NCBI GenBank assembly: GCA_964549495.1
Contig: CAZJWJ010000008.1
Span: 514 to 64,513, forward strand
DNA length: 64,000 bases
Reading direction: 5' to 3'
Source: an uncultured Anaerolineales bacterium
GTDB taxonomy: Bacteria > Chloroflexota > Anaerolineae > Epilineales > Epilineaceae
Below are positions 45,485-64,000 of the stretch, one piece after another. The position numbers were made by a program, and so were the translations under genes. The notes beneath the pieces were generated by a model, which had not been told where the DNA came from, made no database searches, and saw only the letters and a list, made by a program, of their open reading frames with translations. Each line of letters opens with the position of its first letter. Position 1 is the first letter of the stretch.

Positions 45485-45737
45485 GCCGGTTCTCGCGCTC
45501 GGCTTCTTCGGTCACGGCGATATCGATCATCTCGCGGTCAGATCGATCGCGCTCCAGAGCCGGCACGGCCATGACGACCGAGTCGAGGCTGTGCGCGGCC
45601 CGCTCGATGTAGACACGGCCATCCTCACCGACGATGAACACGAGCTTGTCGGATGCCCGAAGCTCCAATCGCTTGCGGATGCCGGCCGGCACCGTCACTT
45701 GCCCTCGCCCTGTCACCGTGGCTGTCTCTGTTTGCAT
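45474..45737 (-). CDS. vapB: AbrB/SpoVT-family antitoxin (VapB-type)
   Basis: ATG at 45737 after GGAGGGG. TVTGRGQVTVPAGIRKRLEL is a swapped-hairpin AbrB motif. 11-bp overlap with vapC. Confidence 0.8.
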   Translation of the reverse strand: MQTETATVTGRGQVTVPAGIRKRLELRASDKLVFIVGEDGRVYIERAAHSLDSVVMAVPALERDRSDREMIDIAVTEEAERENRHGR

Positions 45738-45783
45738 GATCACCCCTCCGCACGCGCACTCGGAGCTCAGGGTCCGAGTCGAT

Positions 45784-45828
45784 CGCATTGCATTATTCTA
45801 TCGCAATGCATCGCAAGAGCGCAATGCG
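45784..45828 (-). promoter_or_regulatory. candidate vapBC promoter/operator: repeated CGCAATGC/GCATTGCG half-sites around a TAGAAT -10
   Basis: cgcattgc (45784-91), cgcaatgc (45802-09) and gcgcaatgcg (45819-28). attcta (45795-800) reads TAGAAT on the coding strand, 58 nt upstream of the vapB ATG. Confidence 0.5.
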
Positions 45829-45892: not shown

Positions 45893-46150
45893 CTACAGCG
45901 AAGAGCGAAATGCCTCCAAATCGTTCACCTCGAGGATCCGGCGGTGCAAGGCTTCCAGTCGCTCCGGATCCGCGATGGTCTCGATCTGAGGCATGAGCGC
46001 AAGGCCTTCGTCGCCAAAGCGAAACGCCAACAGTCTTCGGATGGCATCGAGGAAGGCGGCCTGCCGGCCGATGGCCTCTCCCTCGACTCGGCCTTCTCGT
46101 CGGCCTTCTTGTCGACCTTCGTGGTGAAGTTGCTCAGCGATCGTGGCCAC
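45893..46150 (-). CDS. small stand-alone DUF4351-like protein (C-terminal module of Rpn/YhgA-type putative transposases)
   Basis: GTG at 46150, 4 nt after AGGAGGGAG. TIAEQLHHEGRQEGRREGRVEG...LLAFRFGDEGLALMPQI...LEALHRRIL is the E-G-R-Q-E-G helix plus the RFG helical module (recall). Confidence 0.55.
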   Translation of the reverse strand: MATIAEQLHHEGRQEGRREGRVEGEAIGRQAAFLDAIRRLLAFRFGDEGLALMPQIETIADPERLEALHRRILEVNDLEAFRSSL

Positions 46151-46303
46151 GGTACTCCCTCCTAGGTCCGGCCGAGCGAATCGAGTCTCATCGGCCTGAT
46201 GGCAGGCGTCCGATCGATGCACATCGACGAGGTGCGCTGGAAAGGACTACAGCTCAGCGCGAACGGCATCCAAGTCCTCAGCGTCGAGGATCCGTCGGTG
46301 CAG

Positions 46304-46750
46304 TCACTGCAACCAACCCAGATCGTTCACCTCCCTCACTTGCCGCATCAGTGCCCGGCCTTCGTCACCGAAGCGGAAGACCAGCGTGTCCTCTACGGCA
46401 TCGAGAAGGCTGGACCAGCGTCCGTACTCCTCGCCTTCTTCGCGTCCTCGTCGACGCAGCGCCTCGGCGAGTCTGACAAGGTGCTCCCCACCTAGCAGGA
46501 GCGTTCGCATGGTTTCGATGTCGTCGATGTCGGTCAGCAATGCCAGTGCGAGGTGGAGTTGATCCGGATCGTCTTGGGCTTCGACCCAAGGCATCAAGCT
46601 CAACCCGTCCGGACCGAAGCGCATTTGCAGGCAAGTCCGCAGGCTTTCGCGGAGCCCCAGAACCCGACCCTTTCGCAGACTTTGGCTGAACACGTCTCTG
46701 GTCAAGAAATCCAAGAAGTCCTGAACCTCATGTTCCGCGGCGGCAGACAT
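46304..46750 (-). CDS. DUF4351-like protein with two tandem copies of the module
   Basis: ATG at 46750 after GGAGGGAAG. LQMRFGPDGLSLMPWVE... and RRRGREEGEEYG...LVFRFGDEGRALMRQVREVNDL; the latter is paralogous to the 45893 gene. Confidence 0.6.
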   Translation of the reverse strand: MSAAAEHEVQDFLDFLTRDVFSQSLRKGRVLGLRESLRTCLQMRFGPDGLSLMPWVEAQDDPDQLHLALALLTDIDDIETMRTLLLGGEHLVRLAEALRRRGREEGEEYGRWSSLLDAVEDTLVFRFGDEGRALMRQVREVNDLGWLQ

Positions 46751-46877: not shown

Positions 46878-48986
46878 TCACAGCAACTGCGGGCGCCGCT
46901 GCTCGGCGAGGAAGCGCTCGGTTCCCGCTGGATCGTAGGTTCGGCGCATGATCAGCTCGAGCTCCAAGCCGTCTGGAAGGCAAGGCTGGAACTTGCTCAG
47001 CCCGCCCCGGCGGGTGTGGCCGGCCGCGCGCCTCGCCAGTGCGTGGAGGTCCGCAGCAGCCAACTGCTGGATCGAAGCGCGCGCTGCGGCCGCGGCGGCG
47101 GGATCGTCGGTGGATAGACCGAGGTTGCCGCGCTTCCAGTCGCCGCCCTGCTCTTCGAGGCCAGCCGCCAGAAGGGCGTTGATGGCACCACCGGCAAAGG
47201 TGTGCCAGTGCACCCCCTTGTCGGTGCGCTCGATCGGCGCCTCGCCCGGCGTCACCAGGCCTTTGTAGCCCAAGCGCAGCGCGGCCAGCTCGTGGGCGGC
47301 GCTCGGACTGAGCCAGGGGTAGCGCTCGGTGTCGGCCAGCACCGCCTTCATGGACTGGCAGACCTCGAAGGACAGGTAGCCTCCCTCGCCCGACCAGCGC
47401 GGCAGGGCCGCACGGTCGGCCGGCTCGACGTAGCAGACCGCCCGCCGCCAGTCGATGCTGCGCACCTGCCAGGGCTGGCCGGCCAACCGGAACAAGGCCG
47501 GTCCTGCGCGCTCCTCCAAGACATGCAGGAAGGCGAAGTCGAGGCTGCCGACCTCGCGCCGGCCATGCTGCACGCGGAAGATGGGGGGCGTGTCGAAGAC
47601 CGCGTAGAGCTCGAAGAAGTTCTTGCCGGCGTAGCGCTTCTCGCCCTCGGCGCCCAGGCTCAGCCGGCCTTCGGCTTGGTAGAGGATGTCGCGCTCGAGC
47701 ATGGTGTCGATGAGCGCATCCAGGTCGGCCTGGCTCAGGCCGCGGAAGGGGCTGGCGCCGGCCAACCAGGTCAGGATGCGATGGCGCGAGATGCCCATCT
47801 CCTGAAGCGACAGGGCGATGATCTGGTGGGCCAGGACGTGCGCGGCGGCGGTCTCCGGCACCACGTCCTCGACCCAGCCCTGCTGCATCAGGCGGATCAA
47901 TCCGGCGGCCTGGAGCATCGTCTCGGAGGTCCGGCACAGGAAGTGGCAGTTGGACACCGTTTCCGCTCGGCGGCCGGTGCGGCCCATGCGCTGCAAAAAG
48001 CTGGATACGGTGCGCGGCGCATCGATCTGGATCACGTGGTCCAGGTCGCCGACGTCGATGCCCAGCTCCAGGGTGGAGGTGCAGACGATGGCGGTGTTCG
48101 TCCCGTGCTGGAAGCGGGCCTCGGCGCGTTCGCGGTCCTCGCGGCTGACCGAGCCGTGATGCACGAAGGTGTCGATGCCCTTTCCCTGCAAGGCCGCGGC
48201 CACCTGTTCGACCAGGCGCCGACTCTCGGCGAAGACCAGGCTCTTGCGGCCCAGCCCGATCTCGACGACCCGCCGCACGACCCCCGCGTCACTCTCGACC
48301 AGGTCGACGGAAAGCTCCCGCAGCGCAGGCGGCTTGGCCGGATCGACACGGCGGTAGGGACGCTGGCTCGAGCCGGCCAGCCACTGGCCGATCCGATCGG
48401 GATTGCCGACGGTGGCCGAGAGGCCGATGCGCTGCAGGTCGCGACCACAGAAGCGGACCAGCCGCTCGAGAATGGCCACCAGGTGCGCGCCGCGGTCGTC
48501 GCCGGCAAAGGCGTGCACCTCGTCGACGACCACTGCCGACAGGCCCGCGAACTGCCCGGCCGCCTCTTCTGGTCGGGTCATCAGCATGACCTCGAGCGAT
48601 TCGGGCGTGGTCATCAGGATATGCGTCGGCGCCTCGCGAAAGCGCCGCCGCTCGGCCTGCCCGACGTCACCGTGCCACTTGAAGGCATCCAGGCCGACCA
48701 TGCGCGCATAGGCCTTGATGCGGTGCTCTTGGTTGTTCAGAAGGGCGCGGATGGGGCAGATGTAGAGTACGGCAACGGGAGCGAGCTCCTCGCTCAGGAT
48801 GCGCGACAGCAACGGAAAGATGCTGGCCTCGGTCTTTCCGCCCGCCGTCGGCGCCAGCACGATCGCGTTGTCCCCGGCAAGCACCGCTTCGATGCTCTGC
48901 TCCTGAACCGGCCGCAGCGTGTTCCAACCCAGCTCGTGCACGATGGCATGGCGCAGGTTAGGGTGCAGCTGGAAGAAGGCACTCAC
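46878..48986 (-). CDS. brxHI: Lhr-like DEAD/DEAH-box helicase, BREX BrxHI-type
   Basis: VLAPTAGGKTEA (Walker A), VVVDEVHAF (DEVH), LSATVGN, HHGSVSREDRERAE, QRMGRTGRR. 702 aa, GTG start. Position is last in the BREX operon. Confidence 0.85.
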   Translation of the reverse strand: MSAFFQLHPNLRHAIVHELGWNTLRPVQEQSIEAVLAGDNAIVLAPTAGGKTEASIFPLLSRILSEELAPVAVLYICPIRALLNNQEHRIKAYARMVGLDAFKWHGDVGQAERRRFREAPTHILMTTPESLEVMLMTRPEEAAGQFAGLSAVVVDEVHAFAGDDRGAHLVAILERLVRFCGRDLQRIGLSATVGNPDRIGQWLAGSSQRPYRRVDPAKPPALRELSVDLVESDAGVVRRVVEIGLGRKSLVFAESRRLVEQVAAALQGKGIDTFVHHGSVSREDRERAEARFQHGTNTAIVCTSTLELGIDVGDLDHVIQIDAPRTVSSFLQRMGRTGRRAETVSNCHFLCRTSETMLQAAGLIRLMQQGWVEDVVPETAAAHVLAHQIIALSLQEMGISRHRILTWLAGASPFRGLSQADLDALIDTMLERDILYQAEGRLSLGAEGEKRYAGKNFFELYAVFDTPPIFRVQHGRREVGSLDFAFLHVLEERAGPALFRLAGQPWQVRSIDWRRAVCYVEPADRAALPRWSGEGGYLSFEVCQSMKAVLADTERYPWLSPSAAHELAALRLGYKGLVTPGEAPIERTDKGVHWHTFAGGAINALLAAGLEEQGGDWKRGNLGLSTDDPAAAAAARASIQQLAAADLHALARRAAGHTRRGGLSKFQPCLPDGLELELIMRRTYDPAGTERFLAEQRRPQLL

Positions 48987-48992
48987 CCGCGC

Positions 48993-50363
48993 CTAACCCA
49001 ATCGTTTCGGAGTCGGAGACTCGGACGATGGTTCGCCGGCTGGGGGCGGCGTTTCCACAGAGTCTTCCGCGGCATCACCACCCTTGCGCGCCTCCAACTC
49101 CTCCGGCGTGAGCGCCGACTCGTCGACCGTGAAGTCGTAGTCCTGCTCGGGATCGTAGTCGGGGTAGAGGTCGACCCGGTCCATGACGTCGACCAGGTCG
49201 CGCAGGAAGAGGCGCGGGACGATGCTGACCTGGCCACCGAAGGCGCTGGTGGCCTGCTGGACGAGCGCGTCGATGAAGGCGTCGTCCACCCGCTCGCGTA
49301 GGCGGTCCGGATGCTCGGCTGGGAAGAGATCGCGCACCTTGCGCCCGACCTCGGCCAGGCGCTGGGCGTCGAAGGGCTGGAGGCGGACCTGGGGGGCGCG
49401 CAGGTTGTCGAAGCGCGGGTCGTCACCAAAGCGGGTCTCGACGCGCGCCGCCAGGGGCGACAGATCCTTGATGCCCTTGTAGCCGTCGTAGAACTCTGGC
49501 GTGCCGGTGACGACCAGGTAGAGGCCCGGCAGGTCGCCGCCCAAGAGGAGGTCGATCAGCTGGCGTAGGGCGTTGAGCGCTTTCTCGCGCACGTCGGAGC
49601 GCATGCGCTGCACGGTCTCGACCTCGTCGAGCACCAGCATCAGGCCCTGGTAGCGGCTCTCGCGCAGCAGTTGGAGCAGGCCGCGCAGGAAGGTGAGCGC
49701 GCCGGGTCCGTCCAGGTCGCCCTTGACGTCTGCGCTGCGCTTGATGGCCGCGGCCACGCTGGGTTCGCCGGAGAGCCAAGCCAGGAGCCCCTGGGCGGTG
49801 GCGAAGTCGGATTGTTCCATGGCCCGGTGGTAGGCGCGCAGAGCGCGCGCGAAGGCCGGGTTGCGCGTGCTCAGGTCGGCCAGCTTGTTCTCTAGCCGCT
49901 GCTCGACGGCCGCTGGGAAGGCCGGGTCGCTCTCGGCGATGCCTTGCAGGCGCATGACCTCTTCGCCGATCTCGTAGATCCAGCTGTCGACCAGGGCCGG
50001 AAAGGCGCCCTCGCCATCGGTGGCGGTGGTCAGGCGCTCCATCAGGCGGCGGTAGACGGTCTCGAGCCGGTGCAGTGGCGTGTCCGTGACGGAGATCTGG
50101 ACCTCTGCGGTGGCGAATCCGCGCTGGCGGGCGTGCCAGCACAAGAGCCGCGTGGCAAAGGTCTTGCCGCTGCCGTAGTTGCCCCGGATCCACTTGGCCC
50201 GGCCGCTGCCGCCACCACCGGCCACCTCGTCCAACTCCCCATCGATGACCTTCAGCAGCGGGTCCAGGCCCGTCGCGAAGTGGTGCAAGCCGTCGCCCGG
50301 CACCGCGCCAGTACGCAGCGCGGCCACGATCTCGCGCGCTTCTCGCTCTTGAACCTGGCTCAT
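48993..50363 (-). CDS. brxD: BREX ATP-binding protein BrxD (DUF2791-type P-loop ATPase)
   Basis: VAALRTGAVPGDGL..., IRGNYGSGKTFATRLL (Walker A), LMLVLDEVETV (Walker B). 456 aa. Family assignment is by recall. Confidence 0.8.
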   Translation of the reverse strand: MSQVQEREAREIVAALRTGAVPGDGLHHFATGLDPLLKVIDGELDEVAGGGGSGRAKWIRGNYGSGKTFATRLLCWHARQRGFATAEVQISVTDTPLHRLETVYRRLMERLTTATDGEGAFPALVDSWIYEIGEEVMRLQGIAESDPAFPAAVEQRLENKLADLSTRNPAFARALRAYHRAMEQSDFATAQGLLAWLSGEPSVAAAIKRSADVKGDLDGPGALTFLRGLLQLLRESRYQGLMLVLDEVETVQRMRSDVREKALNALRQLIDLLLGGDLPGLYLVVTGTPEFYDGYKGIKDLSPLAARVETRFGDDPRFDNLRAPQVRLQPFDAQRLAEVGRKVRDLFPAEHPDRLRERVDDAFIDALVQQATSAFGGQVSIVPRLFLRDLVDVMDRVDLYPDYDPEQDYDFTVDESALTPEELEARKGGDAAEDSVETPPPAGEPSSESPTPKRLG

Positions 50364-51463
50364 GCGGAGGGCTCCTGGGGAATGAAGACGTATTGCGGCT
50401 CACCCGTGGGCAGCGTCTCGCTCCGGAAGCAGCGATAGCCAAGCGCCTGCAGCTGTCGGTCGAGCCCGTTCATGAAGCCCGGAATGCGCGCCTTGCGCGT
50501 GTCCAGGCCCTCGGCCAACTCGCTGAGCGAGACCGAGCCATTCTCCGACAGGAGCCACAAAGCACGCCGCTGTCGCTTGTCGAGCTCGTCGAGGACGGTC
50601 GGAGACAGAGGTGGCCGATCGTCGGTTTCATCACCGGCACCCGCGACCGTACCCACCTCATCATTCGGCTCCAGTGGTTTTGGCGGCACCGGCGACCTCG
50701 GCGACTTCGACGACTCCGGCGGCTTGGTCGTCGCGGGCTCCGCCTGCTCGCGCACCGAGACGGCCGGCATGTCAGCATAGGCTCGGATGTCGATTCCTTC
50801 CGACGCTGATCCACTGTCATCCAGTTGCGGCTGATTTGCCGGAATGGGGTCGGTCGACGGGACGTCCATTGCAGTCAGCTCGCGCTCGCCCTCGAGCAAG
50901 GGCTCGAGCGGGTCGGACCTGAAGCGCCCACCGGCCCACAGTCGTCGCCACATGACCACCGCGATGCCGAAGCTCAGGATCAAGAGCGTGAGCATGATCT
51001 GATTCGAGCGAGGATCGTCGGTGGTCAGGAATTCGTCGCCGAAGACGATGATCATGCCGATCACCCAAACGACGAACACCACCACGCTGAGCACCGTGAC
51101 CGCGGCGAGGTGCAGCCCAGCGCCGAGGCTGGCGACGACGGAATGCATGCGCGCCTGCACCTGCTCCGTGGGCGTGAGCCCGGCCGGCAGGCTCTGCAGC
51201 GGTCCGTGCGAGCGCAGCCAGCGGGCGCCGAGCACGGTCATGCCCAGGGTCAGGGCCATGGCAAGGCGGAATTGGGCGTCCGACATGCCCTCGCCCGTGC
51301 TCTGGATCCCGAGCAGCATCTCGCCGACGGCGAGGATGACCGCGGCCATCACGAAGGCCAAGGGCCCTGCGATGGACACGCGGAGAATCCAGAGCAGGCA
51401 CCCGCCGAGCTGCGCCGGATCGGGCCCAGCCGCGAGCTGGTCCTCTGGCTTCTGGATCGTCAT
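50360..51463 (-). CDS. uncharacterised multi-TM protein with Pro/acidic linker and C-terminal winged-helix-like module (non-canonical BREX-embedded gene)
   Basis: ATGA overlaps with both the pglZ stop and the brxD start. 4-5 TM helices in aa 20-170. The C-terminal 70 aa are ~45% identical to the PglZ C-terminal tail. Confidence 0.75.
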   Translation of the reverse strand: MTIQKPEDQLAAGPDPAQLGGCLLWILRVSIAGPLAFVMAAVILAVGEMLLGIQSTGEGMSDAQFRLAMALTLGMTVLGARWLRSHGPLQSLPAGLTPTEQVQARMHSVVASLGAGLHLAAVTVLSVVVFVVWVIGMIIVFGDEFLTTDDPRSNQIMLTLLILSFGIAVVMWRRLWAGGRFRSDPLEPLLEGERELTAMDVPSTDPIPANQPQLDDSGSASEGIDIRAYADMPAVSVREQAEPATTKPPESSKSPRSPVPPKPLEPNDEVGTVAGAGDETDDRPPLSPTVLDELDKRQRRALWLLSENGSVSLSELAEGLDTRKARIPGFMNGLDRQLQALGYRCFRSETLPTGEPQYVFIPQEPSA

Positions 51464-54042
51464 CCACCACCCCGCCAGCTGTACTGATGCTCGCCCGAGC
51501 CCAGGCGCTCGACCTCGAAGAGCGGTTGCCCTTCGGCCTGGAGCGTGTGGTGGAGCTTGGTCATGAAGCCGCGCACCCGAGCCGGGCGCATCTCCAAGCT
51601 GCGAGCCAGCTCGGTCTCGGTCAGGGTCCGGTTGCCGGCCAAGAGCGCCAGGGCCCGCTGCTCGTTGTCGTCGAGGCCCTGCGCGATGCCCTCGGGGATC
51701 TCCGCCGGCAGCCGGCGCGGAACGGCCACCGGCTTCGGCTCGACGGGCTTGGCCGGCACCTCCGGCAGGGCCGCGGCGACCAAATCCCCCGCGGGACCAG
51801 GCTCTTCAACGACCGCGTCCAGCTCCACGTGCTCCGGGAACCTCTCTCGCGCCGCGGGCCCGGCATCGAACCACCAAGCCGGCTCCTCGGCCGGCAAGCC
51901 GCCCCGCTCCAACCAAGCCAAGGGCACGGCCATCTCCTCCAGCCCGCAACCCCCGTGGTAGCCCACCTTGGGTTGGTTGCCGCGATAGGCCGACATCCGC
52001 CAGGCAAAGGCCTGGCGCGCATCGGTGCCGCCAAGCCCGTGGGTGTCGATCTCGATGAAACCCGCCGGCGCAGCCTCGCCCTTGCCGAGCGCCAGGAAGC
52101 GCGCGGTGGCCCCGGCGCTGACGCGATGGTCGGTGCTGGCATGCAGGCTGTGGCCGTGATCGCTGGTGAGCAGGACGCTGCGGCCGGCGTCGAAGGCCGC
52201 GTTCAGGGCCGGCAGCAGGCCGGCGATCTGATCGGCGCGGACCTGCACCGAGAGGCCGGCCGCGCTGCCGATGAGGTCGTCCACGGTGTTGTAGACCGCT
52301 ACGACCAGCCGCGGACCGTCGGCGGCCAGGGCCGCGCGCAGCGAGGCGCCGCCATCGGCCAGGTCGCCCTTGAGGAAGAGCTGCGTGCTCAGGCTCTCGA
52401 GCCAGTCGTTCTGGTTGAGCCGCGCCTTGTCGGTCTTGGCCGCCTCGGCCTGCCAGGTCGATTCCTCGACCAGGGGATCGTCGGGAATCTTGCCCGCCAT
52501 CAGGGCGCCGCGGGCGTGGCTGGTGATCGAGGGCAGGATGGAGATGCCCAGCGGCAGCTCGGCAGCGCCAAGGTCCTCGCCCAGCTCCAGGCCGATGCCC
52601 GTCCCCGCCGTCGCGGCCAGCTGCCACAGCAGCTCGTTGAAGACGGCCAGGCTGCAGCCGTCCAAGACCACGACGAAGACCGGCCGGCCGCTCTGGTCGA
52701 TGCGCGGCCGGGCCACATCGCGCAGGATGTTGTGCATCGGCACGACGCCATCCTGCCCGATGGCCGCAGGGTAGTCCTCGGCCAAGGACTTGGCGAAGGC
52801 CAGGTTCTCGGCGTCGCGCCGCTTGCGCCAGGCGTCCAGGACGGCCCCGGCCTCCGAATGGAAGCTGCCGGTGGCCGCCAGGCAGCGCTGCATTCGCATC
52901 GCGGCCAAATCGGCAAAGGCGCCGTGGCGCTGGTAGGCGCGCAGGCGGGCGTCGATGGCGCTGGCCGAGCTCTCCTCCGTGGCCAGGTAGCGCGAGAGGC
53001 GGGCCAGCTCGGCGAGCAGGGCCAGCTCGCGCCGATAGGCGTCCACGGCGCGATGGCGCTCGAGCCATTCGATCTCTTCGCGCCCGATGGCCTCGCCCGC
53101 GGCGGCGCGATCGGCGATCTGCGCGGCGCGGTTCTCGAAGCCCAGCGGAAGGATGTGGCTCCGGGCGATCAGCGAGGGGGCAAGTAGCTGGCGGGCGAGG
53201 CTGTCGGCCTGCTTCAGGTAGGGTGCCGCGGCCGGCCCCATCTCGTCCAGCACCTTCTCGATCAGCTGGACGATGCTCCGGCGCAGGCTATCGGACGGCA
53301 GGCCGACGTGGGCATCGTCGAGCGCGCCGTCGAGCGGGCCCCAGACGGCCAGCGGCAGCTCGTCGGACTCGGTGGCCAGCAGGATGCCGTGGACCAGCAG
53401 GGCTTCCAGGCGACCCGGCTCGGCCAGGCTCCAGGCCAGGATGCGGCCCTGGGTGCCCAAGTGGACGGGGGACTGGCGCCTGAAGAGCCGGCGGACGGGC
53501 GGCTCCAGCGCGGGGCCCTTGGCCAGCAGCTTGGCGACCACGCCGGCCGCGCTGGCGCTGCGGATGCGCTGTTCGAGGATGATCTCGATCAGCAGCTCTT
53601 CCAGCAGCTGGGCATCGACGACGGTGGGTAGGGTGCGCTGGGCCATGGTCTGGCGCAGCTGCGGGGCGTGGTCCAGGGCCAGCTGCTGCAGCTCTGGGTC
53701 CTCCACGCCGCTGACCTGCACGCCCAGGGCCACCGAAAGGATGTCGACGATGGACAGGGTGTGCACGTGCCCGCTGCAGGAGCGCTCGAGCAGATCGGGC
53801 GGCAGCCGCTGCGCCAGCTCGCGCGGCATCAGCGCGATGAAGGGCGCCCCATCCGCCTTCCAGACCGTCCGCCGCAGGGCCAGCTCGGTCTCGCTGCGGC
53901 AGACGGTGAACTTGCTGCCGCCGGCCTCGACGGCCTCGGGCAGGTCACCCAGCCCGCCTTCGTCCAGCGCCAGCACGTAACCGCCGCGCTCGGCGCAGCC
54001 GGCCATCTCGATCAGGCGCTGGATCAGGGGCGTGGCGTTCAT
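51460..54042 (-). CDS. pglZ: BREX alkaline-phosphatase-superfamily protein PglZ, with extra C-terminal winged-helix-like module
   Basis: PglZ core: VFVVVLDGCSLAVF, SITSHARGALMAGK, VYNTVDDLIG, VLLTSDHGH. 860 aa. ATGA overlap with the brxC/pglY stop. Confidence 0.9.
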   Translation of the reverse strand: MNATPLIQRLIEMAGCAERGGYVLALDEGGLGDLPEAVEAGGSKFTVCRSETELALRRTVWKADGAPFIALMPRELAQRLPPDLLERSCSGHVHTLSIVDILSVALGVQVSGVEDPELQQLALDHAPQLRQTMAQRTLPTVVDAQLLEELLIEIILEQRIRSASAAGVVAKLLAKGPALEPPVRRLFRRQSPVHLGTQGRILAWSLAEPGRLEALLVHGILLATESDELPLAVWGPLDGALDDAHVGLPSDSLRRSIVQLIEKVLDEMGPAAAPYLKQADSLARQLLAPSLIARSHILPLGFENRAAQIADRAAAGEAIGREEIEWLERHRAVDAYRRELALLAELARLSRYLATEESSASAIDARLRAYQRHGAFADLAAMRMQRCLAATGSFHSEAGAVLDAWRKRRDAENLAFAKSLAEDYPAAIGQDGVVPMHNILRDVARPRIDQSGRPVFVVVLDGCSLAVFNELLWQLAATAGTGIGLELGEDLGAAELPLGISILPSITSHARGALMAGKIPDDPLVEESTWQAEAAKTDKARLNQNDWLESLSTQLFLKGDLADGGASLRAALAADGPRLVVAVYNTVDDLIGSAAGLSVQVRADQIAGLLPALNAAFDAGRSVLLTSDHGHSLHASTDHRVSAGATARFLALGKGEAAPAGFIEIDTHGLGGTDARQAFAWRMSAYRGNQPKVGYHGGCGLEEMAVPLAWLERGGLPAEEPAWWFDAGPAARERFPEHVELDAVVEEPGPAGDLVAAALPEVPAKPVEPKPVAVPRRLPAEIPEGIAQGLDDNEQRALALLAGNRTLTETELARSLEMRPARVRGFMTKLHHTLQAEGQPLFEVERLGSGEHQYSWRGGG

Positions 54043-57000: not shown

Positions 57001-57614
57001 TTGATGTCCTGGCTGCCCAGCAAGTGCTCGAGTACTTCCTGGGCATCGGGGACGCCGACGCTTTCCATGCCCTTCCAGAAGGCCTCGCCGTAGCGCTGGC
57101 CTTCGCGCTGGGCCTGCTGCAGCACGCCGTCGACGTCGATGAACTCGAAGAGCGGCTTGCCGCGCTTGTCCAGCTCGCGGTTGACGGCTTCGTAGACCAG
57201 GCGGTCGAAGCGGTCGGATTGCCGGGCGGCGCTCATCAGGTTGACGCGCACGACCAAGAGCTCGCGCTCGGCCACCCAGGGGCGGAACTGGCTGCGCAGC
57301 TCGCCGACGAAGGGGTGGTCTTTCTGCCAGGCCACGTCGGAGTTCTCGAGCAGGTAGCTCAGGTAGCCCATGAAGTGGCTCTTGCCGGAGCCAAAGCTGC
57401 CGTGGATGAACCAGCCCACGCCCTTGCCCTGCTTGAGCTCGGCCTTCATGCGCGTCAGCACGGCCCGCAGATCGTCCTGCACGCCGGGCGTCAGCACGTA
57501 GCTGTCGACCAGGCGCTGGGGCGAGTGCTCACCTTCGTCGATCTGGATGACGAAGTCGAGGGCGGAGATGCCGCTGGGAATCTCGAAGACGTCGTCGAGC
57601 GTCACCTGACTCAT
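54039..57614 (-). CDS. pglY: BREX large P-loop ATPase PglY/BrxC
   Basis: 1191 aa. WFIHGSFGSGKSHFMGYL (Walker A), LVLMLDEMLLW (Walker B). Length and position are typical of BrxC/PglY. Confidence 0.85.
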   Translation of the reverse strand: MSQVTLDDVFEIPSGISALDFVIQIDEGEHSPQRLVDSYVLTPGVQDDLRAVLTRMKAELKQGKGVGWFIHGSFGSGKSHFMGYLSYLLENSDVAWQKDHPFVGELRSQFRPWVAERELLVVRVNLMSAARQSDRFDRLVYEAVNRELDKRGKPLFEFIDVDGVLQQAQREGQRYGEAFWKGMESVGVPDAQEVLEHLLGSQDIKPREKFALAYLEYKGMSAEQAGINPAWAEGLRRLATHLKQQGFDGLVLMLDEMLLWLSGKDDHDFKAAINQLNVMVDFSGGPRDIPLAVLMARQRRFSDFFPDMSDNEELHEHLDHHRERFELITLEDVELRHIVRERVLKVKDPDKLAPVLDALTERHSKLLPTILQSGDEDYLRDVYPYHPALIEMLIDVSSLLQRDRTALRLLYQLLIASRDLPLGELVPVGSAFDFIFPTDNFIGYRRVTTLQAINNLYHQRIGPAIASMAADENLGSIDERRAHTLAQLVKTSLLGKVSPRLSSGFADLSVDRLVRFNDVEVQGRTDLGRMSVTAGDLLELSRRIPAVQISGSGGNAVVSITIEGPDFGELLERAKSSVDNLQRRFHTFYSVFKQQLGIAGQSGFGPQDNNDGPLRVNWRNTERRGSLCIGNIRAMPYERFRPGSAEFRIVIDYPWDEAGFSVEDDRLRVPTVRKAEGSLYTICWLPRHFTPHELDLITDLAACELIASPEGRKSLMPNRDPSDQLQLVDRAEKRAATLRAQLQEAIKSAYRDRGEIIAMVGDVEESIPKPELSDNLEHFARSLLDRRYPQHPSFKSRPTTGDLETLLGWMLQASETESARAPFDDKTERVLRDLGEPLEVVKLGQTHGQLRQDTRYIQHVLQPLGEASLLWAPIDNALTEEYGLQPALRNLFLFFVLRSRSYRTLAEKTGDPIDPGKLDNNARVGLLLERAPVLEAAEWSRARNLGAVLFGLEEPTAYRTLGIQDAWGGQIREAGHLARQQLRSLHSLLVRLGGSEQTPRLSELRQAIDRLQPVDDTKLDSYHMLAALVSAWPDDIDDPLRGVTRGAEADLELVKRVDEDDLGYLRRALGNPVLGKEIQHHVEKLQHWLEPERQHSTLTGAKIHDWNEHAADLVRKLITVKPDPDPDPDPDPEPPRDFEEVFHERDKPIDPREVDTFISKLRSQIAQAAQGAAELRIDITLRRKPEDDAGA

Positions 57615-57701
57615 CGGCTGGGTCCTTGGCTGTGCATGTCGTATCGGTGGAGGCGGCGGAGAGGCCAGCCCGTGAACGGTGCGGCGTCCGTCAGGGCTCG
57701 C

Positions 57702-59456
57702 CTAGTCGTCGCCAAGGCGGATCGCCCCCTGTTCGAGGATCTGATGCGCGAGCTGCTTGGGGTTGTAACCGCCCGGGATGCGCACCAGCGGCTTGTCGTA
57801 GGTGTCGCAGTAGGCCTTGACCTCACTGTATCCGTGGCTCGACCAGCGGATCAAGAGCAGCACGACCGCGACATCGGTCCGGGCGATGGCCGATTCGAAC
57901 TCGGTATAGGAGGCCGCTCCGCCGTCCAACCACAAGAGCTCGCTGAGGCCGAAGGCCCGCTCGATGCGCTTCTTGTGTCGTGGGCGCTGGATGCCGCCGA
58001 TCAGCACGACGGCCTCACCCTCCAACAAGGCGCGGACGCGCTCTTCCTCTTCGCTCGGCGTTTCGGCAGCGATGTCGTCGTCTTGGAGATGCGCGGTTTC
58101 GGTCTCGCGCGATGCCAGGTACCGGTCGATGGCCCGCGAGGTGAGCAGGACGTTCTGGCCGGGCTCGATCTCATCCGGGATGTCGTCGAAGACGGGCAGC
58201 AAGATGTCGCGCAGTTGGACGCTGCTGGGTGCCACGCCCGACTCGACCAGTTTGTCGACGGCGTCCAGCGCCCGGTCCCAATCTTCGCGAGCGCCAGGGC
58301 CGGTTGCGCCGCGAATGCGCTGGATGTGATAGCGCAGCCGTCCCCATTGCCGTGCCTGGTCGCGGCCGACGCTGAGCTGCGCCTCGAGTTCATCGCGCAA
58401 TTCGGCGCAACGTTCGCGCAGGCTTCCCCATGCGCCCGGGTCGGCGGGATCGGTCAGGCGCATGTAGCGCGAGAGGTAGATGCGCTGGCGATCGGTGATG
58501 GAGCGGAGCCAGCCGAAGGCGTCACGTTGGCTCTCGTCACTGCGCTCGTCGAGTCTGGCCACGGCGAGGCGCAGGGCGGATTGGGCTTCGGCCAGGAGGG
58601 CCAGGGCCTGGCTCAGGGCGTCGGAGAGCTCGTCGGTTTCGAGGATCATCGCGCAGAGTCGCAGGGCATCGGCCAGCGCTTCGAAGTTCCCCGCCAATTC
58701 GTCCCAATCTCCCGGGTCGGTGGGGACGGGCGCGTCGCTACGGCACATCCACAACGAGACCTTGGCGCTGTGGCCCTTGCGCAAGATCTCGCGATCGCCG
58801 GGCGCGATCTCGGTATGGAAGTCCACGCCCCGCGCCAAGCGCCGCTGCCGCTCCCCGACCCAACGCGCGGCCTCCGCCTTCAGGCTCGCGTCGCCGGCCA
58901 GCCGGATCAGCAAGCGGCTCTGCGGCTCCGGCGCGGATGCTTCGGTGCCTGTCCGCCCCTGGTCTACGGTCTGTGACGCAGCCATCTCGGCGCGCGCAGC
59001 TTCGCGGGCTCGTCGGGCTTCTCGAGCCTCCTCGGCACGTTCGGCTTCGCGGGCGGCCAATACCTGTGCGATCCGCTCCTCGAGCGATTCGGGCTCTTCG
59101 GGCTCCTCCTCGTCTTCGTCGGCCTGGTCGGTGCTGGCATCTTCGTCGCGATCGGCCTGGTCGCCTTCGTCATCGGCGTCCGTCGCCGGCGCTTCGGCCG
59201 CGGGCTCGCCGGCACCGGCTTCGTCGATCTGCTCGGGCTGGTCGGCGACCGCGTCCAACTCCGGCTGGCGCAACGCGCGCTGGATTCGGTCGGCCGCTTC
59301 GAGCAGGATCGCCCGCAGCTCGGCGTCTTCCTCCGCCAGCTTCGAGAGCCGCAGCAGCAGCGGGAGCATGCTCTCCGCGAGCGAAGCGGCATCACCGCGA
59401 ACCTCTCCGCCCGGCTCCGTCCGATCCTGGTTCATGCCTTGACCCTCGTCGCTCAT
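57702..59456 (-). CDS. uncharacterised acidic protein with DUF2325-like C-terminal domain (non-canonical BREX-embedded gene)
   Basis: True start is the ATG at 59456, forming an ATGA overlap with the pglX stop; the track's 730-aa form carries a Gly/Arg junk extension inside pglX. D/E-rich aa ~70-135, helical middle. C-terminus VVLIGGIQRPRHKKRIERAFGL...TDVAVVLLLIRWSSHGYSEVKAYCDTYDKPLVRIPGGYNP. Confidence 0.8.
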   Translation of the reverse strand: MSDEGQGMNQDRTEPGGEVRGDAASLAESMLPLLLRLSKLAEEDAELRAILLEAADRIQRALRQPELDAVADQPEQIDEAGAGEPAAEAPATDADDEGDQADRDEDASTDQADEDEEEPEEPESLEERIAQVLAAREAERAEEAREARRAREAARAEMAASQTVDQGRTGTEASAPEPQSRLLIRLAGDASLKAEAARWVGERQRRLARGVDFHTEIAPGDREILRKGHSAKVSLWMCRSDAPVPTDPGDWDELAGNFEALADALRLCAMILETDELSDALSQALALLAEAQSALRLAVARLDERSDESQRDAFGWLRSITDRQRIYLSRYMRLTDPADPGAWGSLRERCAELRDELEAQLSVGRDQARQWGRLRYHIQRIRGATGPGAREDWDRALDAVDKLVESGVAPSSVQLRDILLPVFDDIPDEIEPGQNVLLTSRAIDRYLASRETETAHLQDDDIAAETPSEEEERVRALLEGEAVVLIGGIQRPRHKKRIERAFGLSELLWLDGGAASYTEFESAIARTDVAVVLLLIRWSSHGYSEVKAYCDTYDKPLVRIPGGYNPKQLAHQILEQGAIRLGDD

Positions 59457-62400
59457 CCTGCCTCCGCCCACTGCGCGAGGAGCGCTTCGGTCACGCCCTG
59501 CTCGCCCACCAGGTCCTGTACCACCGCCCGGAACTCCTCGGCCGCCGCCTGGTCCTCCCAAGCCACCCAGGGTAGCAGGAACCAGACCCCGTACAGCAGA
59601 CCATAGCAGCGCTCCAGCGCCAGCCCTTCGTTGGCCGCCCGCTCGTAGAGCCCCAGCAGCACCTCGGCCCGCTGCAGCGGCGTCCACCCCGCCCAACCAT
59701 AGAGCGCCCGATCCCCCTCGGCCCCGGGCACCTCGGTAAAGGCGATAAACCGCTCCTTGGGCACATCCAACTTCCCCCGCAGCCGCCAGTAGGCCGTCTT
59801 CTGAAACTCCGCACTCCGATACTTGGGCGGCACCGGCACCTCGACCTCTTCGCCCCGGTCCTCGGCATGCTGCAGCTCCCAGGTCCGCTCCCAAGCCGCC
59901 CGCTTCTCCAGCCCCTTGGGCTTGTACACGTGATGCTTGTTGTTGGGCACGCTGTCCACCGCCACCAGCCGCTCCAACTCCCCCACCAAGGAATAATCCG
60001 GCCGCCCCGTCCGCACCTCACACACCGCCCGCACCTTGGCATCCCCCTCCAAGGCCACCGCCGCCTGCGCCAAGGTCCACGGCGCCGCCTGCTCCTTGGC
60101 CCAATCCTCCAGCCGATCCGCCAACCACCCATCCAGCGCCTCGCGCTCCTCGGCCTCGTAATCCGGCTTGTACCACCGCCGCTTGTAGGTCGGCTGCTCC
60201 AGCAGCTGCAAGGCCTTGCTCTTCTCGATCAGCGCCAGCCGCGCCTCGACCCGCGCTCGATAGGCCTCGTCCTCGATCTCGGCAGTGTCGGTGACGGGAT
60301 CCCAGCCGTGGCGGGAGAACCACTTCGTGGGTATCCGATTCCGCAACTCGTCGCGAGTATGGGCACCTCGGATCTCATGATCAAGTCGAGCTAGACGAAT
60401 CTCGAAAGCCCGCAGGCCGGGCCGAATGGGCGGCGCCTCATCTGGTCCAAGTGATGCCACCGCCGAATCAGAAAAGTCAACACCTGGATCTACGTTGTAT
60501 AGTGCGTAGCAGTACCAGTCGAGTTCCTCTTGTATGGCAACAAGGGTCTTGAGGTACTCCAGATCAGCGCTACGATGCGCGAGCAATTCACTTCGCAATG
60601 CAACGGGACCTTCAGACAGTAGTTGATCGATCTTGTCGCGAACCCGTGACATTACACGCTCAGATGCAAGCAAATCCATCCTACGCGCATACTGATCCAG
60701 TTTACCAGGTAACAACTCCACCACGGGGAATGCCTGCATCTTTGTAGAGTCGTATACCGCACGTCGCTCCCACCCCTCACTGGCAATTCCGCCTCCGATT
60801 CCCCCTGTCCCCTTATCAAAGCAGACTTGCTTCAGCCAGAACAGACTTGTCGATGAATTCAATTGGCCAAGCAGAACGTAGTGCTCGTCCTCAGTTACTT
60901 CGGGTGGCATCTTGATTACCGGAGCGGCTTGATTGAATACGGTCCCTAGTTGATCGAGCGCGAAGTGGTTATGGGTGGCAAGTTCCGCAAACACTATCGT
61001 ACGCGGAGTGAATCGATCCGCGGAAATCTGCCCGTACTCCCACCACGGTTTCTCCACGTCGCGATACTCAGCCCCACCAAACACCTTCCGTGCTTCAAGC
61101 AATCTACGGTATGGCCAGAGAACGTTCGAGACACCACCAAGTGCTTCAATGTCGATCGTGCGTATTTCACTTGTGTAAGGAAACAGCACTTCAAGCTGTG
61201 CTTCCGCACACCAGTTGCGGATGTTTTCTCCAACCCCAAATAGCCTGAGGAGTGCCGAGCTACAGCCGCGCCGCTCGAACACCCCTAGCGGCTGGGAGAA
61301 GGCATCGTCCATTTTCGTGATGCACATGAAACCAATTGCATCGGCAAGTTCACCAACTGTGTGAGCTGCTACCTCCTCTACTCGAGATTGGAGTCGACTG
61401 GCACCGCCTCCTCGAAGACTCCAAGGGTGAGAGTGATACTTTCGATTAGGACTATCATCAACTGAGATATACTGATTCTCGAAGTCAGGGTCTCGGTACC
61501 CCGCCTCGATACTCGACCAGACTAACCCTTCCGATGGTTCCACAGGCACGCTTGGTTCACCTCGTTTGCCGAGCACTGTCCGCACCAAGTCACTTGCATT
61601 TGGGAATGAGGCTCGGCCGAAGATCATTACTGTAGGTGTACCGTGCCCAGGGATGTAGGCACCCGCGGTGTCCACAATCATCGTCAGCGTCACGGTCGGG
61701 AAGAACCTCTCGATTAGGGCTGCCCCAAAACTCCGCTTAGAGAAGGAGTTGGCAGTTATCAGTCCTACGTAGCCACCCTTATCCTCTGTGACTGCGAGTT
61801 GAAAACAGCGTTCAGTAAAGGGGCAACCAAGCGAGTAGAGTCGGTAGGCAGAGACGTATCGTGGCTGCTTCTGCCCACCGACCGTGATCTCCTCCTTGTG
61901 GTACTTCTTGCGCGCCTTGTCCTTCTCGGTGATGTAGGGCGGGTTGGCCACTACCGCGTGGAACCCCTCGGCCAGCACCGGCCGCAGCTGCTCGCGGACC
62001 TCGCGCGGCGTGAGCATGGCCGCCGGCTTGTCCTTCACGCTCACCGCCACTCCAACGCCATAGTCGTCACCGAACCCTAGCTGCTGGATCTCGCCGGCCG
62101 GCTCCTTGGCGTCGGCTTCCAACTCGACCTGATCCAGCCCATCCGCCCAGAAAATCTGCGGATGGAGGTCGGCCCCATTGGAGAGGTCGGTGGAGCCGGC
62201 GAGTTCGAGGGCGTACATCAGAAGTCGGGCTCGGGCCAGGGCGCAGGCGTAGTCGTTGAGGTCGATGCCGACGACGCGGGAGAGGACGTGTTGGGCGGCT
62301 TCCATGGGACTCAGGTCGGGGCGGGCCTGGCGGAGGCCGGTGAAGAGGCGGTCGAAGCCGGCCAGGAGGAAGTGGCCGCTGCCGCAAGCGGGGTCGATCA

Positions 62401-63058
62401 GGCGGACGGTTTCGATGTCCCAGTGCTCGATGGCGGGGGTGAGGGTCTCGTCGAGGATGAAGTCGACCACGAAGTCCGGGGTCTGGAGCAGGGCATAGCG
62501 CTGCTTGACCACGGGGTCCAGGTCTTGGTAGAGGTCGCCCAGCAGGCGGCTGTCGAAGTCCTCCTGGTCGAAGCGCCAGCGCAGCTCGTTGGTGTCGGGG
62601 TCGACATCGCGCCAGAAGTCCAGCAGCTTGCGGCTCAGGGCGTCGCTGGGTTCGGTCACCTCGGCGGGGGTTAGGGCGAAGAGCTCGGTCAGGCCGCTCT
62701 CCTTCTTGGCCAGGTCGCGGTAGATCCAGCGGAAGTAGGCCGTCTCGCCCAGGTCGGGCGCCAGGCGGTGGAAGAGCAGCTCCGACTCGCGGTCGAGGAT
62801 TCGGCCGGGGCGCAGGAGGCCGCGGTCCTCCAGGACGCGCAGGTAGACCGAGCGCAGGACCCACATTACCGCCGCACGGCGGCTGAGCAGGTCCGTCCAT
62901 AGGCGGAAGCCCTGGCCCACGCGCTCGGCGGCGTGCAGCGCCTCGGCGCGCTGGCGGACCGTGGGGTCATCCAGGATGCGCTGGCGAAGGTCGGCGGCGA
63001 TCTCCACCGACAGCGCAGAGAGTTCCTCGGTCAGGGCCTTGCGGGTGGCTGGGTTCAT
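59453..63058 (-). CDS. pglX: BREX N6-adenine DNA methyltransferase PglX
   Basis: 1201 aa. Motif I IDPACGSGHFLL, motif IV VVANPPYI (61934-61945 encodes NPPY). Length and architecture are typical of PglX. Confidence 0.92.
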   Translation of the reverse strand: MNPATRKALTEELSALSVEIAADLRQRILDDPTVRQRAEALHAAERVGQGFRLWTDLLSRRAAVMWVLRSVYLRVLEDRGLLRPGRILDRESELLFHRLAPDLGETAYFRWIYRDLAKKESGLTELFALTPAEVTEPSDALSRKLLDFWRDVDPDTNELRWRFDQEDFDSRLLGDLYQDLDPVVKQRYALLQTPDFVVDFILDETLTPAIEHWDIETVRLIDPACGSGHFLLAGFDRLFTGLRQARPDLSPMEAAQHVLSRVVGIDLNDYACALARARLLMYALELAGSTDLSNGADLHPQIFWADGLDQVELEADAKEPAGEIQQLGFGDDYGVGVAVSVKDKPAAMLTPREVREQLRPVLAEGFHAVVANPPYITEKDKARKKYHKEEITVGGQKQPRYVSAYRLYSLGCPFTERCFQLAVTEDKGGYVGLITANSFSKRSFGAALIERFFPTVTLTMIVDTAGAYIPGHGTPTVMIFGRASFPNASDLVRTVLGKRGEPSVPVEPSEGLVWSSIEAGYRDPDFENQYISVDDSPNRKYHSHPWSLRGGGASRLQSRVEEVAAHTVGELADAIGFMCITKMDDAFSQPLGVFERRGCSSALLRLFGVGENIRNWCAEAQLEVLFPYTSEIRTIDIEALGGVSNVLWPYRRLLEARKVFGGAEYRDVEKPWWEYGQISADRFTPRTIVFAELATHNHFALDQLGTVFNQAAPVIKMPPEVTEDEHYVLLGQLNSSTSLFWLKQVCFDKGTGGIGGGIASEGWERRAVYDSTKMQAFPVVELLPGKLDQYARRMDLLASERVMSRVRDKIDQLLSEGPVALRSELLAHRSADLEYLKTLVAIQEELDWYCYALYNVDPGVDFSDSAVASLGPDEAPPIRPGLRAFEIRLARLDHEIRGAHTRDELRNRIPTKWFSRHGWDPVTDTAEIEDEAYRARVEARLALIEKSKALQLLEQPTYKRRWYKPDYEAEEREALDGWLADRLEDWAKEQAAPWTLAQAAVALEGDAKVRAVCEVRTGRPDYSLVGELERLVAVDSVPNNKHHVYKPKGLEKRAAWERTWELQHAEDRGEEVEVPVPPKYRSAEFQKTAYWRLRGKLDVPKERFIAFTEVPGAEGDRALYGWAGWTPLQRAEVLLGLYERAANEGLALERCYGLLYGVWFLLPWVAWEDQAAAEEFRAVVQDLVGEQGVTEALLAQWAEAG

Positions 63059-63059
63059 C

Positions 63060-64000
63060 TCAGGCCGGGTCCTCCACGGGGATGGCTTGGTCGAGCGGCA
63101 AGACCGCTCCCTCGATATGGAACAGCGGTGCGCTGCGGTTGAGCATGGGCTGCTGCTTGTGGATGATGCCCGGCACCACCACCACCCACATGCCGCGCTC
63201 CGTGCCCAGCGTGGCGTTGTAGATCTGTTGCACCAGGTGGGTCGCCTGGCATAGCTCGAGCAGGGCCAGGTCGCCCAGCACGTTTACCGCGCCAGGCCGG
63301 CCGTGCTCGCGCAGCAGGTCGCGCAGCAGCGTCTCGGCCGCCTCGGTCAGCTCGTCGCGCAGGAAGGCAAAGCGCTCGGCCTTCTCGAACTTGGCGAAGT
63401 CGGACTCCATGCGGCCCAGCAGCTCCGCCTCGAAGCTGATGAAGTTGGCATCGGGGCCCATCGCGCGGGCGATGTTGCGGCCCAGCTCCGGATGCTGGTC
63501 GGGCGGGGTGACCACCATGCGCCAGCTGCCCTCGCGTTGGGCCGCCGCCAGCATGCCACCCACGATCTGGGAGGGGCTGCGCTCGGCCGTCAGCAGCATG
63601 GCCGGCAGGGCATCCGGCTCCGGGCCCGGGCGGGCCTCCACGGCATCCGGGCCGCGGGCCACCAGCTGGTCGCCGTCCAGGCGGACGCCGGGTAGGTCCA
63701 ACTCGGCCACCAGGTCGGCCAGGGTCTGGTCGGCCGGCCAGTCGACCTGGTCGTTGAAGTGGGCGTCGATCTCCGCCTTCAGCGCGTCCAGCGCCATCGG
63801 CAGCTGCTCGCGGTGCAGCAGGAAGGGCAGCGCCAGGCGCGGGTCGACCGGCGGGCGGAAGAGCTCGCCGGCATCGGTCCGGTCCAGATCGCTGGCGATG
63901 CGCGCCACCAGCTCCACCGGGTCGCCGGCGAAGCCGGGCAGCGTCGCGGCCAGGGAGTCGCGGGCCGCCTCGCCTTGCTTGGGCGGCCAGTCGGCCAGGC
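63060..64000 (-). CDS. 3' part of the gene preceding pglX (open to window edge); possible BrxB(DUF1788)-like C-terminal region, identity unresolved
   Basis: I translated 63918-64000 by hand. The frame stays open (…LADWPPKQGEAARDSLAATLPGFAGDP-VELVARIAS…), so the GTG at 63917 in the track is probably internal. The stop lies 1 nt before the pglX ATG. The tail ...GMWVVVVPGIIHKQQPMLNRSAPLFHIEG loosely recalls the BrxB C-terminus. Confidence 0.6.
   Translation of the reverse strand, partial: LADWPPKQGEAARDSLAATLPGFAGDPVELVARIASDLDRTDAGELFRPPVDPRLALPFLLHREQLPMALDALKAEIDAHFNDQVDWPADQTLADLVAELDLPGVRLDGDQLVARGPDAVEARPGPEPDALPAMLLTAERSPSQIVGGMLAAAQREGSWRMVVTPPDQHPELGRNIARAMGPDANFISFEAELLGRMESDFAKFEKAERFAFLRDELTEAAETLLRDLLREHGRPGAVNVLGDLALLELCQATHLVQQIYNATLGTERGMWVVVVPGIIHKQQPMLNRSAPLFHIEGAVLPLDQAIPVEDPA

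Follow-up and report, generated by a model that had tools for sequence, protein, structure and literature searches.

A probable type 2 BREX operon from an Anaerolineales bacterium with an apparent passenger gene and a predicted membrane-anchored paralogue of the PglZ winged helix

Type 2 bacteriophage exclusion (BREX) systems, of which pglWXYZ from Streptomyces coelicolor is the archetype, consist of a tripartite core together with PglW, BrxD, and BrxHI (Rakesh & Krishnan, NAR 2026, PMC12839542). In this type, the C-terminal half of PglW incorporates, as fused parts, a BrxA-like triple winged helix-turn-helix (wHTH) and a BrxB-like iSTAND domain, PglZ bears a type-2-specific C-terminal wHTH, and neither brxL nor brxR is on the list of components (PMC12839542). 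The same study, which lists ~1300 type 2 loci, describes at scale how such loci and those of other BREX types can enclose auxiliary or backup effectors, including GmrSD, OLD-ABC with TOPRIM, Schlafen, HEPN, and others, and proposes backup suicidal effectors for type 2 loci. Here, we compare these systems with an operon found in a 64-kb stretch of contig CAZJWJ010000008.1 from an uncultured Anaerolineales bacterium; this whole stretch, which has a G+C content of ca. 70%, is referred to below as the window. The original prediction for this DNA was a type 2 BREX/Pgl operon with unusual gene content, perhaps representing an undescribed subtype. Our analysis indicates that the region is probably a canonical type 2 operon, in the order pglW-pglX-pglY-pglZ-brxD-brxHI, that bears a passenger gene of 584 amino acids (aa) and a BREX-2-dedicated accessory gene encoding a predicted 367-aa membrane protein with a wHTH.

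The open reading frame (ORF) listing agrees with the layout that had been described, with eight minus-strand ORFs within 46878-64000 at exactly the coordinates originally given:

63060..64000, minus strand: C-terminal 312 aa of PglW with an iSTAND-like end, the remainder lying past the window edge (PADLOC PglW match and alignment with the PglW of locus L011)
59453..63058, minus strand: PglX, BREX-2 adenine DNA methyltransferase (NCBIfam, PADLOC, Pfam, motif)
57702..59456, minus strand: 584-aa gene, apparent cargo (homologues and AlphaFold2 model; no library match at default thresholds)
54039..57614, minus strand: PglY/BrxC P-loop ATPase (PADLOC, Pfam, motifs)
51460..54042, minus strand: PglZ of the type 2 kind, with a C-terminal winged helix (NCBIfam, PADLOC)
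50360..51463, minus strand: 367-aa accessory gene, predicted transmembrane (TM) region and wHTH (BLASTP, AlphaFold2, Foldseek, hydropathy)
48993..50363, minus strand: BrxD ATPase (NCBIfam, PADLOC, Pfam, motifs)
46878..48986, minus strand: BrxHI, Lhr-like superfamily 2 helicase (PADLOC, Pfam, motifs)

When the junctions were read directly, the pglW stop and pglX start codons were found in the sequence TGAgATG, with a 1-nt gap, and ATGA overlaps were found at the pglX/584-aa gene, pglY/pglZ, pglZ/367-aa gene, and 367-aa gene/brxD junctions. The 584-aa gene is separated from pglY by 87 nt, and brxD from brxHI by 6 nt. The two extra, translationally coupled genes of the original prediction are indeed present, and neither is named by PADLOC, Pfam, or NCBIfam; at default thresholds, neither protein has a match in these libraries or in PHROGs. 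A promoter and terminator scan of 46-64 kb gave no signal above shuffled expectation, and we therefore make no claim of separate pglWX and pglYZ transcripts. Rfam had no match in 44-64 kb, and, in a repeat search, neither the 584-aa nor the 367-aa gene was bordered by repeats indicative of an insertion.

Profile searches with PADLOC, NCBIfam, and Pfam supported the type 2 BREX/Pgl assignment. All six hallmark proteins match BREX-2 or BREX profiles, with PglX, PglZ, and BrxD scoring above the curated NCBIfam cut-offs. PglX matches the BREX_2_MTaseX equivalog at 1019 bits (cut-off 400), PADLOC PglX at 1103 bits, and the Pfam families DUF7008, Eco57I, and MmeI_Mtase; its methyltransferase motif, NPPY, is at residue 372. 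PglZ matches NCBIfam BREX_PglZ_2 at 282 bits (cut-off 200) and PADLOC PglZ at 230 bits, while the Pfam PglZ domain falls just below its cut-off (24.6 vs. 25). BrxD matches NCBIfam BREX_BrxD (558 bits, cut-off 350), PADLOC BrxD (567 bits), and Pfam BrxC_BrxD (449 bits), and has the Walker A and Walker B motifs GNYGSGKT and MLVLDE. For BrxHI, the PADLOC model is matched end to end (855 bits), the Pfam domains being DEAD, Helicase_C, and WH_Lhr and the motifs APTAGGKT, DEVH, and SAT. PglY matches PADLOC BrxC-PglY (488 bits) and Pfam DUF6079 and BrxC_BrxD, and both its Walker A (GSFGSGKS, residue 72) and its Walker B (LMLDE, residue 252) motifs are intact. The partial upstream ORF has a weak PADLOC PglW match (E 1e-7) to model positions 1129-1384 of 1413 and aligns with residues 1081-1387 of the 1389-aa PglW encoded at locus L011 (53% identity, E 3e-93). 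The L011 gene sits directly upstream of pglX, and residues 14-980 of its product contain NERD, two kinase domains, and an RNA-polymerase-alpha-CTD-like domain. The C-terminal module seen in the window is the one in which full-length NERD-kinase PglW proteins also end.

Several features that had been taken as departures from the known types are normal for type 2. The supposedly extra C-terminal module of PglZ is the wHTH of the type 2 family itself (PMC12839542), located at residues ~786-857 (51472-51687); the BREX_PglZ_2 match extends over residues 35-847 of 860 (profile positions 29-874 of 890) and, because it runs nearly to the end of the protein, there is no module beyond the family. The absence of a kinase motif is expected, because the kinase would lie in the N-terminal half of PglW, and the window holds only the last 312 aa. 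The absence of brxA is likewise normal, since BrxA-like and BrxB-like parts are fused into type 2 PglW, and neither brxL nor brxR, whose absence had also been remarked upon, is among the listed type 2 components (PMC12839542). The six genes are those of the Streptomyces coelicolor system, in the same order. With all six hallmarks present in canonical order, we therefore assign the operon to type 2 and not to a new subtype.

To place the operon among its relatives, 80 loci centred on PglY homologues were collected, and the proteins of the window were mapped onto them. The pglW-pglX-pglY-pglZ-brxD-brxHI order is conserved across the related loci and was seen in ca. 50 of them. The nearest of 680 PglY homologues are 52-53% identical and occur in metagenome-assembled genomes (MAGs) of Caldilineae and Anaerolineales, followed by a large group at 41-48% identity that is mostly from Myxococcota MAGs and isolates. 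In actinobacterial Pgl loci, the identity to the PglY of the window is only 25-28%. By these comparisons, the operon appears to fall in a non-actinomycete branch of the type 2 family, with its nearest relatives in MAGs of Chloroflexota and Myxococcota. Unlike the Streptomyces archetype, it also carries two extra genes.

Two observations concern the core genes themselves. Codons ~400-900 of pglX (60359-61858) have a G+C content at third codon positions (GC3) of ~0.5, vs. ~0.9 elsewhere in the gene, and a bulk G+C of 0.57. The N- and C-terminal parts of PglX have their best matches in Chloroflexota loci (68-82% identity in L011-L013), and the centre matches other loci at 39-65% identity (L037, L062, L016, and L087). 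The central segment looks like a recombinational swap of the specificity-bearing region. Within the pglZ coding sequence, ARAGORN called a tRNA-Pro(TGG) at 51849-51950 (minus strand), which was rejected as a probable false positive, being 102 nt long, located in coding sequence, and without Rfam support.

The 367-aa gene, located between pglZ and brxD, apparently encodes a rare, BREX-2-specific, and previously undescribed protein in which a paralogue of the PglZ wHTH is, according to the structural model, anchored in the membrane. Residues 294-360 align with residues 790-856 of the PglZ encoded in the same operon (BLASTP, 45% identity, E 2e-12). The AlphaFold2 model, built with 24 sequences, contains four long helices (residues 16-50, 62-86, 98-147, and 151-177) that make up the predicted TM region (50933-51418), a disordered linker (residues 198-287), and a C-terminal domain (residues 288-360; 50384-50602) with the helix-helix-strand-helix-helix-strand-strand (H-H-b-H-H-b-b) topology of a three-stranded wHTH, predicted with a local confidence score (pLDDT) of 96-98. 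Foldseek identified MarR, ArsR, TFE-alpha, and TrmB as structural neighbours of this domain, with probabilities of 0.99-1.0 and a root-mean-square deviation of ~3 Å over 72-82 columns; the E values are only ~1e-2 because the domain is small. The Pfam families HTH_24 and MarR give sub-threshold matches to it. Hydropathy and charge point to a cytoplasmic winged helix, the two odd-numbered loops being acidic and the fourth TM helix being followed by RRLWAGGRFR. Thus, the last 70 aa of the protein are homologous to the C-terminal wHTH of type 2 PglZ and share its predicted topology, but the copy is detached from the phosphatase/nuclease body, is fused to a predicted four-TM anchor through a linker of ~90 aa, and forms its own, better conserved subfamily. 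Neither the main text nor the supplementary text of PMC12839542 mentions a membrane protein in BREX loci.

Relatives of this protein are few. A word-indexed homologue search returned only the query itself, and an exhaustive HMMER search of 1.84 billion representatives found three full-length relatives, P0144 (44%), P0145 (38%), and P0146 (37%); the other matches were short proteins consisting of the C-terminal domain alone and PglZ proteins of 860-871 aa, which matched through their C-termini. In every context that we obtained, the relative is encoded between pglZ and brxD. This is the case in Candidatus Epilinea brevis (L012), where the protein is nearly identical to P0146; in L090, which encodes P0144 and a BrxD 83% identical to that of the window, the closest relative seen; in L091-93, which encode P0145 with 4-nt overlaps on both sides; and in a Joint Genome Institute (JGI) metagenome (L096), the only further locus recovered by a metagenome scan with the family as query. 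The flanking overlaps are 4 nt wherever gene calls exist, and full-length relatives of the gene occur in about four other lineages. In the window, the reading frame of the 367-aa gene shares 4 nt with pglZ and 4 nt with brxD, and its translation is thus probably coupled to that of the two neighbours.

To judge from the identity matrix of the ~80-aa wHTH domains, the 367-aa paralogue is old, of a single origin from the PglZ C-terminal wHTH, and more constrained than the fast-evolving PglZ tail, because identities are 58-95% within the TM family and only 24-45% between that family and any PglZ tail. Pairs encoded at the same locus are no closer (39% in the window, 24% in L012). A recent in-locus copy of the 3' end of pglZ was considered and rejected, as the wHTH is 39-45% identical to its own PglZ tail and 58-70% identical to family members from other lineages. 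Separately, a Myxococcaceae MAG (L035, 16104-17042) encodes in its pglZ-brxD slot a soluble 312-aa protein with a PglZ-tail-like wHTH, a different N-terminus, and no TM helices, which may have arisen independently along similar lines.

The 584-aa gene occupies the pglX-pglY junction, and its family is also small. A search of 5.8 billion proteins yielded just 21 homologues, which are 25-58% identical to it. The alignment of the 22 sequences supports the ATG at 59456 as the start of the gene and contains many nearly invariant residues. The AlphaFold2 model (pLDDT 83) consists, from the N- to the C-terminus, of a helical hairpin, an acidic disordered linker, an all-helical domain of ~350 aa (pLDDT mostly >90), and a four-stranded alpha/beta domain. 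The last of these (residues ~482-582; 57711-58013) resembles DUF2325 (PF10087): the C-terminal ~100 aa align with 78 of 94 profile positions, and the predicted fold is four-stranded and Rossmann-like. Yet the score of the isolated C-terminus is 25.3 bits (E 1.8e-5), under the gathering threshold of 33.6, and the preceding ~350-aa helical domain is without a known relative. Foldseek against PDB gave nothing significant for the protein (best E 4.5e-3, TM-score 0.13), the matches being generic Rossmann-like ones to the C-terminal domain, and a profile search of PDB sequences gave a single, spurious match derived from I-CreI.

Searching the 80 related BREX-2 loci with the 584-aa protein (tblastn) gave no match. 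Thus, of the expectation that both extra genes recur in homologous loci, only one half stands: the 367-aa gene recurs at the same position in several lineages and is not a named component, and the 584-aa gene is found in none of the 80. Because of this absence, the 584-aa gene is, as far as locus comparison can tell, lineage-specific cargo, a passenger in the pglX-pglY slot. Its GC3 of 0.83, vs. 0.92-0.93 in pglY and pglZ, fits later acquisition; both extra genes are lower in this respect than pglY and pglZ (0.83-0.84). The genomic contexts of seven of the 21 homologues were examined, and none is a BREX locus. The closest homologue (P0002, 58% identity) is on a ~17-kb element with a Replic_Relax gene, a resolvase, and a NACHT protein. 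P0007 and P0008 are located in variable regions in which PIN/Phd, HicA, or HEPN/MNT pairs are no more than 10 kb away, and P0013 (Fontivita), P0015, P0017, and P0010 are encoded by lone genes amid housekeeping genes. The locus of the closest 584-aa homologue on its mobile element (L003, SRR14234133) and that of the closest 367-aa/BrxD relative (L090, SRR14234027) have neighbouring Sequence Read Archive accessions; possibly the two runs come from the same study or habitat, which would fit local exchange of the cargo gene.

The slot occupied by the 584-aa gene is a busy one in the near clade (L010-L065), in which pglX and pglY are both visible in 44 loci. The spacing between the two genes is 1.3-8.9 kb in 30 of these, and that between pglW and pglX is 1.8-5.3 kb in ten loci; in the two slots, 67 ORFs of at least 200 aa are co-directional with the operon vs. 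11 in the opposite orientation. The cargo includes DarT with a macro-domain protein (DarTG), GmrSD, Septu PtuA/PtuB, AAA_21 with DUF4276 (PADLOC HEC-01A/B), a Schlafen AlbA_2 and HATPase_c_4 protein, a ResIII-helicase-HNH protein, a DUF1016/YhcG nuclease, an M78 peptidase, AAA_13, DUF2326/LmuB-like and PDC-M28-like proteins, and a YhgA-type transposase. An hhalign comparison of the 584-aa family with the largest unannotated cluster of slot cargo gave no relationship (probability 0.1%). The 584-aa gene is one more, so far unique, occupant of this defence-cargo hot spot. Like the embedded effectors of other BREX loci (GmrSD/BrxU, PARIS-like OLD-ABC with TOPRIM, and Schlafen; PMC12839542), it lies within the core operon, co-directional and flanked by BREX genes. 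In contrast to them, it encodes no nuclease or effector domain that could be recognised, and its family has no other association with BREX or known defence systems.

Other junctions of the related loci also hold additional genes. The pglW-pglX junction is a second cargo slot (L015, L023, L025, L028, L039, L042, and L056), in which L023, L025, L039, L042, and L056 contain a family of ~560-650 aa whose representative has Schlafen AlbA_2, HATPase_c_4, and a Fic-like C-terminal domain. At L059 (7960-9897), this family is found instead in the pglX-pglY slot, and the ~1.8 kb at pglW-pglX in L015 and L028 contain ORFs that do not cluster with it. The usually tight brxD-brxHI pair is interrupted in two loci, L043 (17475-20438) and L051 (17458-18594); in Nannocystis bainbridge, the insert encodes a 987-aa protein with NACHT and pentapeptide repeats. 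Between pglY and brxD of L064 (7328-10245), the detectable part of PglZ is limited to its last ~76 aa, which follow ~2.6 kb of unmatched DNA, and pglZ may be disrupted or replaced there.

Some of the evidence weighs against a canonical type 2 operon with one passenger and one dedicated accessory gene. The PglY of the window scores 297 bits against the actinobacterial NCBIfam BREX-2 PglY equivalog, far below the cut-off of 1700, a result of the divergence of this clade from actinobacterial PglY that places it at a distance from the Streptomyces archetype. The window lacks the N-terminal three-quarters of PglW, in which the kinase is expected. The ATGA overlap that couples the 584-aa gene to pglX is also what one would expect if its product were a functional partner of PglX. 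The 367-aa family is known from about five independent contexts, most of them on short contigs, and it is absent from the sister loci L011 and L047, which have similar BrxD/BrxHI and in which pglZ directly precedes brxD; it is therefore dispensable for the core system. If both extra genes were integral components, then the operon would be the undescribed subtype that the original prediction had envisaged, and the ATGA overlaps of both genes inside the operon, the lack of a name for either in PADLOC, Pfam, and NCBIfam, and the divergent PglY all fit that view. Yet the hallmarks and their order are those of type 2, none of the 80 related loci contains the 584-aa gene, the homologues of which, where examined, lie outside BREX loci, and even close sister loci do without the 367-aa gene, which makes a new subtype very improbable. 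At the other extreme, both extra genes could be functionless passengers, the 367-aa gene being a decaying duplication of the 3' end of pglZ fused to random hydrophobic sequence. The absence of the 367-aa gene from sister loci and the lower GC3 of both genes would agree with this, but about four other lineages have intact, full-length relatives of the 367-aa gene in the same place, with the coupling preserved, its wHTH is more conserved than the PglZ tail and is not a recent in-locus copy, and the 584-aa protein is intact, many of its positions being nearly invariant in the 22 sequences. We thus regard this explanation as improbable as well. The canonical type 2 operon with its two additional genes remains the preferred reading.

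Within that reading, the roles of the two genes can be considered separately. From knowledge of the family, PglX would methylate adenine in a host motif, and incoming unmethylated DNA would be recognised and its replication blocked, with PglZ as the probable nuclease effector, PglW as a putative sensor with kinase and NERD nuclease domains, and BrxD and BrxHI as a presumed ATPase-helicase pair. The 584-aa gene may encode an auxiliary defence or regulatory factor. This proposal, which is compatible with a cargo gene and which we hold only tentatively, has the protein working with or backing up BREX, its helical domain sensing a signal and its DUF2325-like Rossmann-type domain binding a nucleotide or a partner. 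It draws on the bona fide defence modules that mostly fill the slot in relatives, the overlap with pglX, the NACHT protein beside the closest homologue on its mobile element, the PIN/Phd, HicA, or HEPN/MNT pairs within 10 kb of others, and the confidently predicted and strongly conserved fold. It is countered by the lack of a detected nuclease or other effector domain and of PADLOC or PHROGs matches, by the solitary position of the more distant homologues (Planctomycetota-type genomes) amid housekeeping genes, and by the lack of a conserved partner gene among the homologues.

The 367-aa protein and the PglZ tail would share a ligand, with DNA and a BREX partner as the candidates, and the predicted membrane anchor and flexible linker of ~90 aa would allow the protein to recruit that ligand to the membrane or to compete with PglZ for it. 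Acting in this way, it could hold the PglZ/BrxD/BrxHI module at the inner membrane, the site of phage DNA entry, or gate it there. It is possible, though doubtful, that the family is in this sense a component, so far overlooked, of some type 2 BREX systems that physically couples PglZ/BrxD/BrxHI to the inner membrane. Four predicted TM helices joined to a sensor-like domain could also suggest an abortive-infection effector, in which ligand binding by the wHTH triggers membrane disruption by the four-helix region, as in the TM effectors of other systems, and backup suicidal effectors have been proposed in type 2 loci (PMC12839542). We consider this unlikely, as there is little conservation in the TM region (whole-protein identity 33-45%, with few invariant residues), the constrained part is the wHTH, at 58-95% identity, and the slot protein of L035 is soluble, with the same kind of wHTH and no TM helices, suggesting that the wHTH is the functional core. 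Because it is the wHTH and not the TM region that is conserved, and because L035 has a TM-less equivalent, we favour a putative adaptor or gate over a pore-type effector.

Downstream of the operon, an overlapping pair encoding a PIN-domain toxin (143 aa) and a MazE/PrlF-type antitoxin (104 aa) is located at 45053-45788 (minus strand), in a stretch of lower G+C (0.66) between the BREX operon and glycosyltransferase/ABC-2 genes. Two small minus-strand ORFs downstream of brxHI (45893-46222 and 46304-46750) share the motif …FRFGDEG.ALM…EVNDL…, which occurs twice within the 148-aa ORF and is the source of a 56-nt direct repeat at 45893-46302 (77% identity, spacing 354 nt). Neither small ORF has a match in Pfam or PHROGs.

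To our knowledge, how BREX halts phage replication is not settled, and type 2 is the least studied of the major types. What is new at this locus is an apparent BREX-2-specific, membrane-anchored paralogue of the PglZ wHTH and an unannotated cargo family, the rest being what one would expect of a normal type 2 system. In this clade, the pglX-pglY junction often holds cargo and could be mined for new defence genes, the 584-aa family being one candidate. The 367-aa gene duplicates the wHTH tail of PglZ alone, in a form predicted to be membrane-anchored and always between pglZ and brxD, which suggests that important interactions are made through this tail. If true, the coupling of PglZ/BrxD/BrxHI to the membrane would provide a first genetic handle on the cellular site where BREX meets phage DNA.

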